UHGV virus genome: UHGV-0193479
Length of the DNA stretch: 14,009 nucleotides
Source: a virus
Strand: one strand, 5' to 3'
Of the stretch, positions 3,080-10,151 are shown piece by piece. Within the stretch, counting starts at the first letter, position 1, and each line of letters starts with the position of its first letter. A program made the translations under genes and the position numbers. Under the pieces are notes generated by a model. That model was not told where the DNA came from. It was given only the letters and a program-made list of their open reading frames with translations, and made no database searches.

Positions 3080-3817
3080 ATGGCCACACCAAACCCGCTG
3101 GCACCAACAAAAGGTGCTGGTACCACCCTCTGGGTTTACACCGGAACTGGTGATCCATACGCCAATCCGCTTTCAGACGTTGACTGGCTGCGCCTGGCAA
3201 AGATTAAAGACCTGCAGCCCGGAGAACTGACAGCTGAATCGGAAGATGACACCTACATCGATGATGAGAATGCCGACTGGACATCAACGATGCAGGGGCA
3301 GAAATCAGCCGGTGAAACAAACCTGACGCTCGCATGGATGCCGGAGGATTCCGGTCAGCAGGACCTGGTGAACTGGTTCGATGAAGGCACCGTGAAGGGG
3401 TATAAAATCAAATATCCGAATGGTGTTGTCGATGTCTTTAAGGGCTGGGTGAGCAGTCTCGGCAAGACCATCTCGTCTAAAGAGGTCATGACCCGCACGG
3501 CAAAAATCACCAACAACGGCAAACCATCACTGGCAGAAGACAGTGGTGCCGCGCCGATTGCTGTCACGGGGATCAGCCTGGATAAATCCACTGCAGCTGT
3601 TGCGGTCGGTGAAACTGTGCAACTGGTTGTATCTGTTCTTCCGGCCAGTGCGTCAGATAAATCCTTCCGCGTATCGTCAGCTGACCGGGCCAAAGCCACA
3701 GTTACGGCTAACGGTAACACACTGACGGTCACCGGCGTGGCGGCAGGCACCGTCGAAATCATCGTTATGAGCAATGACGGTAACTTTGTGGCGATCTGCA
3801 AAGTCACTGTTTCCTGA
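3080..3817 (+). CDS. V: Major tail tube protein, lambda gpV-like, with C-terminal Ig-like (Big_2-type) domain
   Basis: 245 aa; [44 protein letters not shown]… matches lambda V ([44 protein letters not shown]…). C-terminal …[37 protein letters not shown]… parallels the lambda V Ig-like domain. Confidence 0.95.
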
Positions 3818-3821
3818 TAAC

Positions 3822-3837
3822 CGGGGCGCGAGCCCCG
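3822..3837 (+). promoter_or_regulatory. All-GC hairpin in V-G intergenic region (no U-tract; possible attenuator or mRNA stabiliser)
   Basis: Seen in sequence: CGGGGC-GCGA-GCCCCG (6-bp G:C stem, GCGA tetraloop of GNRA type), followed by TTCCCCCGGAG containing the G gene RBS. Confidence 0.4.
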
Positions 3838-3853
3838 TTCCCCCGGAGTAATT

Positions 3854-4276
3854 ATGTTTCTAAAGAGCGAACTGCTTGAATGCAACGGCAGCAGCGTCAC
3901 ATTGTTCCAGCTTTCGGCGCTTCAGCGTATTGAATACCTCGAATACCTGAAGCAGCTGGAGGCAGTTGAAGCTGGCGATTTTCAGGCGGCCATCACCCTC
4001 ACCGTAAAAAGTGGGGCGTTCCTCGTGGCGATGTCACTCTGGCACGGCCACGAACTGAAAGGCTCCCAGGGAGAAAATGCGGCGGCGGAAGTGGCAAAGA
4101 TTCAGGATGAGGTCATGCAGTCATGGCCGACCGAACTGGTTGCCGAAGCGGAATATAAGGTGAAACTCCTGTCCGGGATGATTGCGCCTGTCATTGAAGA
4201 ACCGACTTCATCCGGTGAAGAACGTAATGATCCCGCTGAACCCGTTACTGCGGAAAAGTCCTCGCCAGTGAGCTGA
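3854..4276 (+). CDS. G: Tail assembly chaperone, lambda gpG-like
   Basis: 140 aa; MFLKSELLECNGSSVTLFQLSALQRIEYL…GAFLVAMSLWHGHE…PAEPVTAEKSSPVS matches lambda G (MFLKTESFEHNGVTVTLSELSALQRIEHL…GAFLVAMSLWHNH…PAEPVSAGKCSTVS). Confidence 0.93.
   Translation: MFLKSELLECNGSSVTLFQLSALQRIEYLEYLKQLEAVEAGDFQAAITLTVKSGAFLVAMSLWHGHELKGSQGENAAAEVAKIQDEVMQSWPTELVAEAEYKVKLLSGMIAPVIEEPTSSGEERNDPAEPVTAEKSSPVS
4252..4258 (+). other. Candidate -1 programmed ribosomal frameshift heptamer (GGAAAAG) for G-T fusion protein
   Basis: T reading frame is the -1 frame relative to G and is open from 4240 (after TGA 4237..4239) while G ends at 4276. The only slippery-like motif in the 4240..4276 overlap is G GAA AAG at the codons corresponding to the lambda G GGA AAG site (A-E-K here vs A-G-K in lambda, from memory). 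Confidence 0.5.
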
Positions 4277-4284
4277 AATTTGCC

Positions 4285-4605
4285 ATGAAACTGGCGCGTG
4301 AGTTCGGTCGCCCGGACTGGCGTGCCATGCTTGCTGGCATGTCCTCTACGGAGTACGGCGACTGGAAAATCTTCTACCAGGACAATTACTTTCATGATGC
4401 GCAGCTGGACGCACATTTCTCCGGCTTGCTCTACACCATCTCAACCCTGTTTTTTGCCGATCCGGAGTTAACCCCGGACAGTTTCAGCATTCTTTCCTCT
4501 GCACCGGAAGCCATCGACATCGATGATCCGGATGACGATACGCTGATGGCGAAGGCTGCAGGTATTTCAGGAGGCGTGCGCTATGGCCCAGACGGCAGTC
4601 GGTGA
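4285..4605 (+). CDS. T: Tail assembly protein T-like; probably expressed mainly as a G-T fusion by -1 frameshift, approx. join(3854..4258,4258..4605)
   Basis: 106-aa ORF from first ATG, in the -1 frame relative to G and immediately downstream. Position between G and the tape measure gene matches the conserved G/GT arrangement of lambdoid phages. 3' end overlaps H start by 23 nt. Confidence 0.85.
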   Translation: MKLAREFGRPDWRAMLAGMSSTEYGDWKIFYQDNYFHDAQLDAHFSGLLYTISTLFFADPELTPDSFSILSSAPEAIDIDDPDDDTLMAKAAGISGGVRYGPDGSR

Positions 4606-7099
4606 TCTGGTCGTTAACCTTGACGTTAACTCGACAAAATTCAACGAGCAGCTCAGCTACGTCAAAAAAGAATTAAAACAGACCGGCAATACGGCAAACG
4701 ATGAAGCGTTACGTATCCAGCAGTCCTTCAGCCGCCAGGAGAACGCCGCGCGTAAGGCCGGTATTTCAGTGGGTCAGTATAACGCAGCGATGCGTATGCT
4801 CCCGGCGCAGTTTACTGACGTGGCCACGCAGCTGGCGGGTGGGCAGAACCCCTGGCTGATTCTGCTTCAGCAGGGCGGTCAGGTTAAGGACTCCTTTGGC
4901 GGGATCATTCCGACATTCCGGGCGTTGCTGGGGACGATTTCCCCGTTGATGGTCGGCATTGGTGCATTGTCCGTTGCAACGGGCGCGTTGTTCTATGCCT
5001 GGTACCAGGGCTCTTCCACTCTGTCTGATTTCAACAAAACGCTGGTACTGTCGGGGAACACAGCCGGACTGACAGCTGACCGCATGCTGGCACTGGCGCG
5101 GAACGGACAGGCAGCGGGGCTAACGTTCAACCAGACCAGTGAAGCCCTGACCGAGCTTATCAATGCAGGTGTGCGTACTGGCTCGCGCTTTGATGAAATG
5201 AGCCAGGCGGTGGCGCGGTTTACTGATGCCTCCGGCGTGCCGGTGGAGAAAGTCGCTGCAGCCTACGGCAAGCTCGCAACTGACCCGACATCGGGCCTGA
5301 TCGCGATGGCCCAGCAGTTCCATAACGTTACCGCAGAACAGATTGCCCATGTGGCGCAGCTGCAGCGTGCCGGTGATGAGGCTGGCGCACTGCAGGCGGC
5401 TAACGAGGCGGCTACAGCCGGATTCAACGATCAGACCAAAGCCATCCGCGACAATATGGGGACGATAGAGTCTTCAGCGGACTCCCTGAAGCGCGCCTTC
5501 AAGTCGATGTGGGATGCAGCCCTCGATATTGGCCGACCTGACACCGCGCAGGAGATGGTGGCAAAAGCCGAAGCCGCGTTCAAAAAAGCTGATGAAATCT
5601 GGAACCTGCGTAAAGGTGACCGATATGTCAATGCTGAGGCTCGCGCCCGATTCTGGAATGACCGCGAAACGGCCAGGCTTGCGCTGGATATGGCGCAGCA
5701 GCAGGCGGGAATTGCCAGGGCGAACGAAGAGAATGCATCGCGCGAAGCGGCTGCGGAATCGGATCGCCAGAAGTATGCTGCGCAGGCACAGGCAAACTAT
5801 GCCAAAACGCAGACGGCACTGGAGAAATACACGGCCAGGCAGAGCGAGCTCAACAAGGCGCTGAAAGAGGGGCGGATCCTCCAGGCTGACTACAACATCA
5901 ACCTGGCTGCCGCGAAAAAAGAGTACGAAGACACCCTTAAAAAGCCGAAGAAGACCCCGGCAATCAGAACCCCCGCAGGTGCCCGTGCCACCGATACGGC
6001 CAGTGCCCAGACGCTGGAGCTACAGACACAGCTGCGCACCCTGCAGGAGCATAAGAGCATCAATGACACCATCAGCCAGCAGCGTCAGGAGCTGTGGCGT
6101 CAGCAGTCCCGCTTTACGGTTCTGGAAGAGGCCGCGAAGACCCGAACGCTTTCTGCTGAGGAAAAATCCCTGCTGGCCAGTAAAAGTGAGGTGCTTTCCC
6201 GTGCGGAGCTGAATGCGAAGCTTGGCGATCAGATAGTGGCGCAGGAGCGGCTTAACCGCCTGCAGGATACGTCCCAAAAATACGTCACGCAGATCGGCGA
6301 GAAAACCCGAGCCCTTGCGGAAAGTGCTGGTATGAGCAGTCGTGCAGCACAACGCCGCAATGAGGAGGCCCAGCTTCTTCAGGGCTGGAAAAATGGTGGC
6401 GGTTCGGAGAACGACGCTGGTTATCAGAATGAGCTGCAGGCGCTGCAGGCGTATTACGCCGAGCAGGATAAGCTGCGGGACGACTGGCAATCCGGGGCCA
6501 AATCCGCATGGGCAGATTATGTTGATTCCGCTTCAGATGCTTATGGCCAGATGAAGTCGGTTGCCACCAGTACGTTTGATGGCATCGGGCAGAATATGGC
6601 AGACATGCTGACACGCGGAAAGGCTGACTGGGCTGACTTTACCCGCTCCACGCTCTCCATGCTGACACAAATTCTGCTGAAGCAGGCAATGACCGGACTG
6701 GTAGATTCAGCCTCCACGGCGCTGGGGTTTGCCAGCGGGGGATTCACCGGTTCGGGTGGGAAATATGAACCCGCAGGTGTCGTTCACCGTGGCGAATTTG
6801 TTTTCACCAAAGAGGCTACCAGTCGGATCGGCGTCGGCAATCTTTACCGGATGATGAAAGGCTATGCCACGGGAGGGTATGTCGGGGGCGGTGGTACAGG
6901 CCCGGCTGCAGCACCTTTCGGTGTCAGTGTATATGCCCCGGTGACGGTCGAGAATGCTTCCGGTAACGCACAGCAGCAAAACGACGGAGACAGGCTGGGT
7001 AAGGCGTATGAGCAGGTGATTAATAAATCTGTCAACGAGGGTATCGCCAGGGCAATCCAGCCCGGTGGGCTTATCTGGAATGCGACCAATCGCAGGTAA
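4583..7099 (+). CDS. H: Tail tape measure protein, lambda gpH-like
   Basis: 838 aa; VGDLVV…AGISVGQYNAAMRMLPAQFTDVATQLAGGQNPWLILLQQGGQVKDSFGG… and C-terminal GGFTGSGGKYEPAGVVHRGEFVFTKEATSRIGVGNLYRMMKGYATGGYVG match lambda H over essentially the full length (lambda H recalled as 853 aa). RBS AGGAGG at 4569..4574. Confidence 0.97.
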   Translation: MAQTAVGDLVVNLDVNSTKFNEQLSYVKKELKQTGNTANDEALRIQQSFSRQENAARKAGISVGQYNAAMRMLPAQFTDVATQLAGGQNPWLILLQQGGQVKDSFGGIIPTFRALLGTISPLMVGIGALSVATGALFYAWYQGSSTLSDFNKTLVLSGNTAGLTADRMLALARNGQAAGLTFNQTSEALTELINAGVRTGSRFDEMSQAVARFTDASGVPVEKVAAAYGKLATDPTSGLIAMAQQFHNVTAEQIAHVAQLQRAGDEAGALQAANEAATAGFNDQTKAIRDNMGTIESSADSLKRAFKSMWDAALDIGRPDTAQEMVAKAEAAFKKADEIWNLRKGDRYVNAEARARFWNDRETARLALDMAQQQAGIARANEENASREAAAESDRQKYAAQAQANYAKTQTALEKYTARQSELNKALKEGRILQADYNINLAAAKKEYEDTLKKPKKTPAIRTPAGARATDTASAQTLELQTQLRTLQEHKSINDTISQQRQELWRQQSRFTVLEEAAKTRTLSAEEKSLLASKSEVLSRAELNAKLGDQIVAQERLNRLQDTSQKYVTQIGEKTRALAESAGMSSRAAQRRNEEAQLLQGWKNGGGSENDAGYQNELQALQAYYAEQDKLRDDWQSGAKSAWADYVDSASDAYGQMKSVATSTFDGIGQNMADMLTRGKADWADFTRSTLSMLTQILLKQAMTGLVDSASTALGFASGGFTGSGGKYEPAGVVHRGEFVFTKEATSRIGVGNLYRMMKGYATGGYVGGGGTGPAAAPFGVSVYAPVTVENASGNAQQQNDGDRLGKAYEQVINKSVNEGIARAIQPGGLIWNATNRR

Positions 7100-8205: not shown

Positions 8206-8916
8206 ATGCGTCAGAAAACCATCGATGCGATTATGGCGCATGCTGCAGCTGAATATCCTCATGAGTGTTGCGGCGTGGTGGCGCAGAAAAGCCGCGTTGA
8301 ACGTTATTTCCCGTGCCGGAATCTTGCCGAGGCGCCGGAGGACAATTTTGTCCTTTGCCCCGAAGACTACGCAGCTGCTGAGGACTGGGGAACGGTGATC
8401 GCCATCGTTCACAGTCACCCTGACGCCACAACGCAACCGAGCGAACTGGATAAAGCGCAATGCGACGCAACGCTTTTACCCTGGCATATTGTGAGCTGGC
8501 CGGAGGGGGATTTACGCACCATCCAGCCGCGCGGAGAACTGCCGCTGCTGGAGCGTCCGTTTGTGCTTGGACACTTCGACTGCTGGGGGCTGGTAATGAG
8601 CTATTTTCGGCAAACGCATGGTATCGAACTCCACGATTACCGGGTTGATTATCCCTGGTGGGAAAACGAATATCCGGACAACTTCTATCAGGATTGCTGG
8701 TATGAGTGCGGTTTCCGGGAATTCGACGGGCCACCGAAACCCGGCGATATGGTGATCATGCAGGTCCAGGCTGATAAGTGGAACCACGCGGGAATTCTGC
8801 TGGAGGGAAATATGCTGCTGCACCACCTGTACGGACATCTGAGCCAGCGCGTGCCGTATGGTGGCTACTGGCAGGAAAGGACGATGAAGATCGTCAGATA
8901 TAAAACGCTTCTATAG
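8206..8916 (+). CDS. K: Tail assembly protein K-like; N-terminal JAB/MPN (JAMM) metalloprotease motif plus C-terminal NlpC/P60-type Cys-His peptidase domain
   Basis: 236 aa; JAMM signature E…HSHPDATTQPSELD (E-x(n)-H-x-H-x7-S-x2-D) and downstream DCWGLV…H typical of NlpC/P60. Position between L and I as in lambda. RBS AGGAG at 8197..8201. Confidence 0.93.
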   Translation: MRQKTIDAIMAHAAAEYPHECCGVVAQKSRVERYFPCRNLAEAPEDNFVLCPEDYAAAEDWGTVIAIVHSHPDATTQPSELDKAQCDATLLPWHIVSWPEGDLRTIQPRGELPLLERPFVLGHFDCWGLVMSYFRQTHGIELHDYRVDYPWWENEYPDNFYQDCWYECGFREFDGPPKPGDMVIMQVQADKWNHAGILLEGNMLLHHLYGHLSQRVPYGGYWQERTMKIVRYKTLL

Positions 8917-8937
8917 CCCACTCAGGTGGGTTTTTTT
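8917..8937 (+). terminator. Rho-independent terminator after K
   Basis: Seen in sequence: CCCAC-TCAG-GTGGG followed by TTTTTTT (8931..8937), starting directly after the K stop codon (TAG 8914..8916). Confidence 0.7.
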
Positions 8938-9081
8938 AAACCCCGCATTTCACCGCGCACCGCACGCGCAATTCAAACCAAGAACCTTTCAGGATGCACC
9001 TTGAGGAACCGGCTGGCTGTCGGAGCCTTCTTGGGGCCGTTTTCCTGTGCGACAAGGTTCATCACTAAAAGGTAATCCGAT

Positions 9082-9591
9082 ATGCAATATCCAACCGTAT
9101 CTGTAAACGGCGTATCAGTTCGTGTCGATAACGAAGGACGTTATAATCTTAATGATCTCCACGCCGCAGCGGTGGCTGAAGGCAAAGCCACTGAATCACA
9201 GCGACCAGGTGAGTTTCTCAAAACCAAGCAAGTAAGGCGATTTGTTCAAGCCTTGAGCGATGCGAAGAAAATCGCATCGGTTATGACAATTAAGGGGGGA
9301 CCATTTCAGGGCTCCTGGGGGCTTGAACTTATCGCTATACGCTATGCAGCCTGGCTCAATCCGCTTTTTGAAATCAAAGTCTATGAGACATTTCAAATGC
9401 TAATGCGTCGCGGGTTCGATGCCATGTCTCGCTTGAATAAAATCGACCATGTGATTAACACCGAAACCAAAGCGATCAGCCAGTGCGCCAGCCAGATGGC
9501 CAAGTGGGGTGTTGGTGGCCGCAAGCGGCTTCTACACACAGCACGGGAGCGTGTAGCTGATGAAGTACAGATGTATCTCCCCGGTATTTAA
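9082..9591 (+). CDS. KilA-N domain protein (cargo/moron gene, function unknown)
   Basis: 169 aa. N-terminal region …VSVRVDNEGRYNLNDLHAAA…RPGEFLKTKQVRRFVQAL…GSWGLELIAIRYAAWLNPLFEIKV… fits the KilA-N pattern (I/V-R-x-D-x-x-G-x-x-NLNDLHKA…WL…K). Inserted between K and I, where lambda has no gene. Confidence 0.7.
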   Translation: MQYPTVSVNGVSVRVDNEGRYNLNDLHAAAVAEGKATESQRPGEFLKTKQVRRFVQALSDAKKIASVMTIKGGPFQGSWGLELIAIRYAAWLNPLFEIKVYETFQMLMRRGFDAMSRLNKIDHVINTETKAISQCASQMAKWGVGGRKRLLHTARERVADEVQMYLPGI

Positions 9592-9679
9592 AGGGCGCGT
9601 GAACCAAGATAACATTCGGTTTTGCTACCGCTCGATCCCTGCTACTCTTTTGGCAAAATTGACCAAAGGGGATAGGGAT

Positions 9680-10093
9680 ATGAAAAGAATTTTAGTTTTT
9701 ACCTCCATCTTAATGGTTGCCGGTTGTGCAACTAAGCCGGTGACAAATGAACAAGCACAGGATGTTCCTGCAAAACAGGTTATCAGCAATACACTGCTAG
9801 TAAAAAAAGAAGGGACTGGCAAGGTAATAATCAAACGAGACTCTGGTTTTATGGGCAGCGCCTGCATGACCCGAGTTTATGTTGATGGCAAGGAGGTCGC
9901 AGACTTAGATACAGCTCAAAAGGTAACGGTCTATCCCAAAATTGGAGATCATATCTTTAGCGCTTGGCCCAAAGGTATGTGTGGCGGAGGCATGAGCGAA
10001 CAGTCGGGTAAGGTGACAGATACTGGGGTTTTGATGTTTAGAGTTGGTTACGGAACCAACGGTGATTTTGGTATCTACCCTACAGCATTTTGA
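9680..10093 (+). CDS. Predicted lipoprotein (cargo/moron gene); signal peptide with lipobox VAG|C, Ala at +2
   Basis: 137 aa from ATG 9680: MKRILVFTSILMVAGCATKP… has n-region MKR, hydrophobic h-region and lipobox V-A-G-C. GGGGA RBS-like purine run upstream. The ORF-track start 9560 overlaps the KilA-N gene 3' end in another frame and precedes the signal peptide, so 9680 is preferred. Confidence 0.72.
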   Translation: MKRILVFTSILMVAGCATKPVTNEQAQDVPAKQVISNTLLVKKEGTGKVIIKRDSGFMGSACMTRVYVDGKEVADLDTAQKVTVYPKIGDHIFSAWPKGMCGGGMSEQSGKVTDTGVLMFRVGYGTNGDFGIYPTAF

Positions 10094-10112
10094 ATGCAGC
10101 AATTATATATAA

Positions 10113-10135
10113 CCTCGCTCAGGCGGGGTTTTTTA
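10113..10135 (+). terminator. Rho-independent terminator after lipoprotein gene
   Basis: Seen in sequence: CCTCGC-TCAG-GCGGGG (6-bp stem with one G-U wobble) followed by TTTTTTATT; 20 nt after the lipoprotein stop and 17 nt before the I start. Confidence 0.7.
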
Positions 10136-10151
10136 TTATTAAGAGGTTTAT

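Follow-up and report, generated by a model that had tools for sequence, protein, structure and literature searches.

The heptamer G_GAA_AAG as the predicted -1 frameshift site of the G/GT tail assembly chaperone genes in an N15/HK225-like Escherichia coli prophage

The window, that is, the whole stretch of 14,009 nt from the UHGV virus genome UHGV-0193479 that was analysed, carries a lambda-like head-tail module, including the major capsid protein E, FI, the head-tail attachment protein, Z, U, V, G, T, H, M, L, and K. Two overlapping open reading frames (ORFs) are flanked by the genes of the major tail protein and the tape measure protein, and the gene order is V-G-T-H. The gene of the major tail tube protein V (3080..3817, + strand; Pfam Phage_TTP_12 and Big_2) lies directly upstream of G. 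The gene of the tape measure protein H (4583..7099, + strand; Pfam TMP_2 and Tape_meas_lam_C) lies directly downstream and overlaps the end of T. No signals were returned when the region 3700-4700 was scanned for promoters and terminators.

Further along the tail operon, an insert (8917..10151) separates tail gene K (8206..8916, JAB and NlpC/P60) from the next tail ORF (10152..). The phage search gave no match of this insert to N15 or HK225, and patchy matches of 78-96% were seen to genes of Salmonella, Klebsiella, and Escherichia phages. The insert contains a terminator-like hairpin, CCCACTCAGGTGGG and then a T run, at about 8918-8939, an ORF of 169 aa with a KilA-N domain (9082..9591), and an ORF of 177 aa with no Pfam match (9560..10093). 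It looks like a moron in the tail operon.

Gene G (3854..4276, + strand) encodes the 0-frame product, a tail assembly chaperone of 140 aa (PF06894 Phage_TAC_2, E = 4.4e-53), and the annotations of the identical E. coli prophage, HK225, mEp237, and N15 all name this product gpG. The G protein ends in ...PAEPVTAEKSSPVS at the stop codon TGA (4274-4276). In the -1 frame, a TGA occupies 4237-4239, and from 4240 onwards no stop is met before the one at 4603-4605. Both frames, that of G and the -1 (T) frame, are open together in a single stretch, the 37 nt at 4240..4276 (+ strand) bounded by the -1 frame TGA at 4237-4239 and by the G stop, so any -1 shift that makes GT must fall there. The initial annotation had placed T in the -1 frame relative to G and had given the same 37-nt overlap; the translations and the positions of the stops confirmed both. 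The T part (4258..4605, + strand) consists of 115 codons and a stop and matches PF06223 Phage_tail_T (E = 1.5e-12). The predicted GT fusion joins 3854..4258 to 4258..4605, base 4258 being read twice. It would comprise G residues 1-135 followed by VLASELKFAMK..., written ...PVTAEK-VLASELKFAMKLAREFGRPDW... across the junction, and its translated length is 250 aa, in agreement with the earlier estimate of about 250 aa. In a tblastn search, 57 IMG/VR loci matched the 250-aa fusion over residues 1-250.

The G frame reads GCG GAA AAG at 4250-4258. By direct reading, the slippery heptamer G_GAA_AAG (4252..4258, + strand) is the sole in-frame Z_ZZN or X_XXY_YYZ-like motif within the overlap 4240..4276. 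It was identified from the sequence, from its homology to the lambda heptamer GGGAAAG, and from its identity with an annotated feature of N15. The window site aligns base for base with GCG GGA AAG at the proven lambda slip site; the single difference is at position 3 of the heptamer, which is G in lambda and A in the window. The earlier proposal that this is the site equivalent to the lambda slip site is thereby borne out. The heptamer reads G-G-A / A-A-A / G, in which base 3 is A and not G; it is not a canonical X_XXY_YYZ site, as had been pointed out before, and falls in the G_GA non-canonical subclass of -1 sites. As a bare 7-mer, GGAAAAG is unremarkable: the window has 2 copies of it, and 2.15 would be expected. 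Because the string count is at chance level, the case for the site rests on its position, its frame, and its conservation across relatives.

The G-T segment is 100% identical to that of chromosomal E. coli prophages, e.g., in strain MB06232, and the identical segment was found in 31 of 5,426 complete E. coli genomes. Its nucleotide identity is 95.3% to HK225, 94.5% to N15, and 91.2% to mEp237. In the N15 record (AF064539), a misc_feature at 10027..10033 marks GGAAAAG as "slippery sequence for -1 translational frameshift", and this feature aligns exactly with 4252..4258. The G-T slip site is therefore already known: over twenty years have passed since its orthologue was annotated in N15. The prophage is an N15/HK225-like one of E. 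coli, and the site is the ordinary G/GT -1 frameshift site of its tail assembly chaperone genes. The novelty that the initial annotation had implied for the variant heptamer does not stand, since the orthologous heptamer is annotated in N15 and GGAAAAG is the commonest form by diversity.

The annotation of T differs among records. In E. coli MB06232 (locus L004 of the survey, NZ_CM129885.1 2076407..2076721, which corresponds to 4285..4599 of the window), PGAP gives T as a pseudogene, "incomplete; missing C-terminus", without a ribosomal-slippage join. The "GT" CDS of HK225 and that of mEp237 are just the ATG-initiated T ORF. The pseudogene call and the short "GT" CDS are annotation artefacts of the frameshift.

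Related G-T loci were gathered from IMG/VR and from GTDB species-representative genomes, and the survey comprised about 260 loci with 58 distinct 36-nt contexts. The GTDB prophage hosts include Trabulsiella, Citrobacter, Enterobacter, Kluyvera, Pseudocitrobacter, Superficieibacter, Entomohabitans, Pluralibacter, Kosakonia, Rahnella, Klebsiella, and Escherichia, and the identity of the fusion protein to that of the window goes down to about 50%. The initial annotation had proposed that G-T overlaps of related phages be aligned to see which heptamers are conserved; in this alignment AAAG is unchanged in all 58 contexts, and GGAAAAG, which is widespread, occupies 49 of them. GGGAAAG was found in 6 distinct contexts and is limited to the lambda cluster, i.e., lambda and its near relatives, including those in E. 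albertii. GGCAAAG and AGAAAAG were each found in 1 distinct context. Judged from these alignments, GGAAAAG appears to be the main form of the family by sequence diversity and the lambda heptamer a minority form, with the caveat that two of the survey searches were seeded with window-like sequences. Among the relatives, the G/T overlap measures between 25 and 82 nt, with the position of the G stop varying; the heptamer lies inside the overlap every time, and the T frame is intact in all relatives examined.

The two rare variants both retain intact G and T frames. GGCAAAG (GCG GCA AAG) is carried by L039/L204 (IMGVR_UViG_3300048929_000058) and AGAAAAG (GCA GAA AAG) by L229 (IMGVR_UViG_2648501177_000013), and A_AAG is all that these heptamers keep. 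These lineages show that the P-site requirement is strong, not absolute, and that A_AAG is the indispensable core. The two variants would be useful natural test cases for the P-site contribution. In four other, diverged loci (L070, L075, L094, and L099), one codon lies between the heptamer and the G stop (GGAAAAG NNN followed by TGA, TAA, or TAG). This spacing recalls the G_GAU_UUU site of pea enation mosaic virus, in which the stop is 3 nt 3' of the shift site and its change to a sense codon drastically affects frameshifting (PMC5009743).

Short contigs with lambda-type G-T were also present in GTDB assemblies of unrelated taxa (L080-L092, L096-L097, and L101-L103), including Kitasatospora, Oceanobacillus, Neobacillus, Shewanella, Leeuwenhoekiella, Paenibacillus, and others. 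Several of these contigs are labelled with a coverage near 1x or below, and those that bear the slip site have a context identical to lambda's. They most likely represent lambda DNA contamination of the assemblies.

Selection on the heptamer was assessed by counting parsimony changes on a neighbour-joining tree built from 44 distinct homologues. No change fell on positions 1, 2, 4, 5, 6, and 7 of the heptamer, and the three preceding third-codon positions had 15, 11, and 11 on the same tree. Synonymous changes numbered 0, 0, and 0 at A133, E134, and K135 vs. 8, 5, 12, 8, and 6 at codons 128-132; the other codons of G average 6-7 such changes each. Purifying selection acts on the heptamer nucleotides. 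Base 1 of the heptamer is G in 57 of the 58 contexts (44/44 in the first survey), and the codon that carries it in the 44 homologues is GCG (37), CTG (4), GTG (2), or CCG (1). Since the -1 frame is untranslated upstream of the shift, no other constraint acts on this base. The tRNAs reading GAA (tRNA-Glu), GGA (tRNA-Gly), and GCA (tRNA-Ala) all have C at anticodon position 36. After a -1 slip, C36 can pair only with G at position 1, and P-site re-pairing is therefore the best explanation for the conservation of base 1. This conservation favours tandem slippage over slippage in the A site only.

The flanking sequence was searched for a stimulator of the dnaX or IS type, for which a conserved hairpin or pseudoknot would be expected 5-9 nt downstream of the heptamer, or an SD-like element 6-17 nt upstream of it. 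A 7-bp stem, CGCCAGT (4263-4269) / ACTGGCG (4290-4296), with a folding energy of -10.3 kcal/mol, begins 4 nt past the heptamer and is shared by close relatives. A role as stimulator is not supported: its covariation is no better than that of controls, its MFE is no better than that of shuffles (folding z-scores of about -1.4 to +1), the diverged GGAAAAG loci L065, L070, L071, L074, L075, L099, and L100 have lost it, and in lambda it is weakened or lost. A 15-bp hairpin at 4292..4327, which is mutually exclusive with this stem, lies inside the T coding region and starts 34 nt past the heptamer (-26.8 kcal/mol, fragment z = -2.6). The hairpin can fold in lambda too, and one C-G to G-C swap looked compensatory. 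It likewise lacks support, as its variation across 44 sequences is mostly pair-breaking with no covariation, and its synonymous change of 4.0 per codon equals the 4.1-4.4 seen elsewhere in T. Conservation of the coding sequence LAREFGRPDWRAM probably gives rise to this hairpin as a by-product. No SD-like element is visible in the sequence upstream of the heptamer, and an Rfam scan gave no match. No conserved stimulator is detectable at this locus, as described for lambda; we know of no stimulator of the lambda G/GT site.

The reading that we favour, with a probability of roughly 80%, is a programmed -1 ribosomal frameshift at the lambda-family G/T genes of an N15/HK225-like E. coli prophage, in which a few ribosomes slip in tandem and produce a GT of 250 aa. 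E. coli has one tRNA-Lys, whose anticodon mnm5s2UUU pairs better with AAA than with AAG, and the anticodon of tRNA-Glu is mnm5s2UUC. The majority of ribosomes would reach the G stop and yield the 140-aa chaperone. A small share would move back one base on G_GAA_AAG (4252-4258), where the A-site tRNA-Lys would re-pair from AAG to AAA and the P-site tRNA-Glu from GAA to GGA, the first and third pairs being kept and G standing opposite U35 in the middle. This re-pairing scheme, with its second-position mismatch in the P site, had been put forward in the initial annotation and was upheld. The slipped ribosomes would go on in the T frame from GTC (4258) to make the 250-aa GT. By analogy with lambda, the G part of the fusion may bind the tape measure protein, and the T part may recruit the tail tube protein.

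Published assays bear on how efficient such a site may be. Working with a reconstituted E. coli system, Peng et al. (2019, PMC6924986) compared G GGA AAG with AUG GAA AAG, the latter as the "less slippery" sequence. With wild-type EF-G, AUG GAA AAG gave mostly the 0-frame peptide, and EF-G domain-4 mutants caused more slippage on both the GAA AAG and the GGA AAG sequences (PMC6924986). In vivo, Z_ZZN tetramers without a stimulator gave a mean of 0.147% frameshifting vs. 0.112% for no-motif controls, and addition of the IS3 pseudoknot brought the best tetramers to as much as 5.6%, A_AAG being top-ranked (Sharma et al., 2014, PMC4066793). The searchable literature yielded no direct experiment on GGAAAAG in a phage. 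An efficiency unlike lambda's, one of the alternatives in the initial annotation, is plausible in view of the in vitro comparison (PMC6924986). We infer that the frameshift efficiency of the site is at or below that of lambda, a few per cent or lower, and that slippage needs no stimulator; a very low GT:G ratio may be compatible with the evidence.

Tandem slippage has to be weighed against a mechanism in which tRNA-Lys slips alone on A_AAG, either in the A site or in the P site after translocation. In that case tRNA-Glu would take no part in re-pairing, and heptamer bases 1-3 would be irrelevant. Such slippage would accord with AAAG being the only part invariant in all 58 contexts and with the occurrence of the GGCAAAG and AGAAAAG variants with intact frames, and the latter two, found in L039/L204 and L229, also count against tandem slippage in that they weaken P-site re-pairing further. 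The conservation of base 1 points the other way: the base occupies a fourfold-degenerate third position, is G in 57 of the 58 contexts over four codon families, and has 0 changes vs. 11-15 at neighbouring third positions. The low activity of A_AAG by itself cuts in both directions. Without a stimulator the tetramer is near background (0.15% vs. 0.11%, PMC4066793) and none was found here, which speaks against slippage of a single tRNA; the same need for an added pseudoknot, together with the lack of a detected conserved stimulator, is also a difficulty for the tandem slip. On balance, we consider slippage of tRNA-Lys alone improbable. The suggestion of the initial annotation that A-site slippage dominates holds in part: AAAG is the unchanging core, but G is retained as base 1 at a synonymous site too, which points to re-pairing of the P-site tRNA.

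Other routes to the T product, or its loss, seem far less probable still than slippage of tRNA-Lys alone. T might be made as a separate protein, without a fusion, from ATG 4285, which opens a 106-aa ORF and is where HK225, mEp237, and PGAP place the T start. In lambda and most relatives, however, this codon reads CTG, and L070 and L095 have TTG and CTC, respectively; T thus has no start codon of its own that is conserved across the family. Furthermore, no SD-like sequence precedes ATG 4285, the T-frame residues VLASELKFA upstream of it are conserved back to the heptamer, and the lambda homologue is made only as GT, as stated in the passage of PMC5009743 that cites Levin et al. (1993). We give a separately initiated T very little credence. 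The initial annotation had also left room for a fusion "made another way", which is unlikely for the same variation of ATG 4285 and because the run of four A at the site is too short for transcriptional slippage. Transcriptional slippage requires long homopolymer runs, and it was rejected as a candidate. The G-to-A change might instead have crippled the site, so that frameshifting would be negligible and either the tail module would be defective or trace amounts of GT would suffice. G GAA AAG is indeed poorly slippery in vitro (PMC6924986), and PGAP calls T a pseudogene in the identical prophage. Against a crippled site, N15, HK225, and mEp237 are viable plaque-forming phages with the same heptamer, strong purifying selection acts on the heptamer in many genera, and the T frame is intact everywhere; this explanation is accordingly very hard to sustain.

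With tandem slippage retained as the preferred reading, a broader proposal can be stated, which we regard as tentative and rather doubtful: in the lambda/N15 gpG-gpT family, the ancestral or majority form of the slip site would be G_GAA_AAG and not lambda's G_GGA_AAG, and bacterial ribosomes in vivo would slip on it in tandem, tolerating the middle G·U without a stimulator. If this were true, either the GT:G ratio would be set unlike that of lambda, or slippage would be helped by an enhancer that has gone unrecognised, such as the nascent peptide or the weak stem that begins 4 nt past the heptamer. Bacteria would then offer a natural case that falls outside the X_XXY_YYZ rule set and that motif-based searches therefore miss. 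The comparison predicts that a synonymous change of G 4252 should lower frameshifting, if the P-site middle G·U re-pairing contributes. The GT:G ratio in N15 or HK225 relative to lambda bears on how tightly the chaperone ratio is constrained. What the comparison contributes is that GGAAAAG is predominant and strongly selected, that the G at base 1 argues for a tandem slip, and that no stimulator is conserved. It is also of practical relevance, as automatic annotation (PGAP) still mislabels T as a truncated pseudogene and searches restricted to X_XXY_YYZ miss this class of sites.

Among known systems, the closest are genes 14/15 of N15 and the G/GT genes of HK225 and mEp237, which are orthologous and have the identical heptamer at the same position. 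Compared with N15, there are few substitutions around the site, e.g., TCC against CCC right after the heptamer, and the window represents a chromosomal E. coli prophage, whereas N15 is a linear plasmid-prophage. The lambda G/GT system is more distant. Its frameshift at G_GGA_AAG has reportedly been the subject of work by Levin, Hendrix and Casjens in 1993 and by Xu, Hendrix and Duda in 2004, 2013 and 2014. The two systems have homologous G and T (fusion identity 53%), the same gene order, -1 direction, and codon position, and the same A-site event, in which tRNA-Lys moves from AAG to AAA. They differ in the P-site codon, which is GAA (Glu) in the window and GGA (Gly) in lambda, and in its re-pairing, with G·U in the middle position in the window and a third-position wobble in lambda; the T part of the window is also 29 aa shorter than lambda's. 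The G:GT ratio in lambda is about 30:1 (PMC5009743).

The A_AAG tetramer and the A_AAA_AAG sites of dnaX and IS elements resemble the window site in that they too depend on the one tRNA-Lys of E. coli and its preference for AAA over AAG. At dnaX and IS sites, the slippery sequence is accompanied by an SD-like element upstream, by a hairpin or pseudoknot downstream, or by both, whereas none is conserved at the window site. Beyond bacteria, eukaryotic RNA viruses have -1 heptamers with G_GA as their P-site half, which form a recognised non-canonical class (Atkins et al., 2016, PMC5009743), and G_GAU_UUU sites occur in umbraviruses, dianthoviruses, mesoniviruses, and insect-specific flaviviruses (PMC5009743). 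The viral G_GAN_NNN sites and the window site depart from X_XX in the same way, with a second-position G opposite an anticodon U. The viral sites work with eukaryotic ribosomes and tRNA-Asp and need strong downstream structures, whereas the window site would work with bacterial ribosomes and tRNA-Glu, with no stimulator detected. The window site is the bacterial counterpart of the viral G_GA sites.
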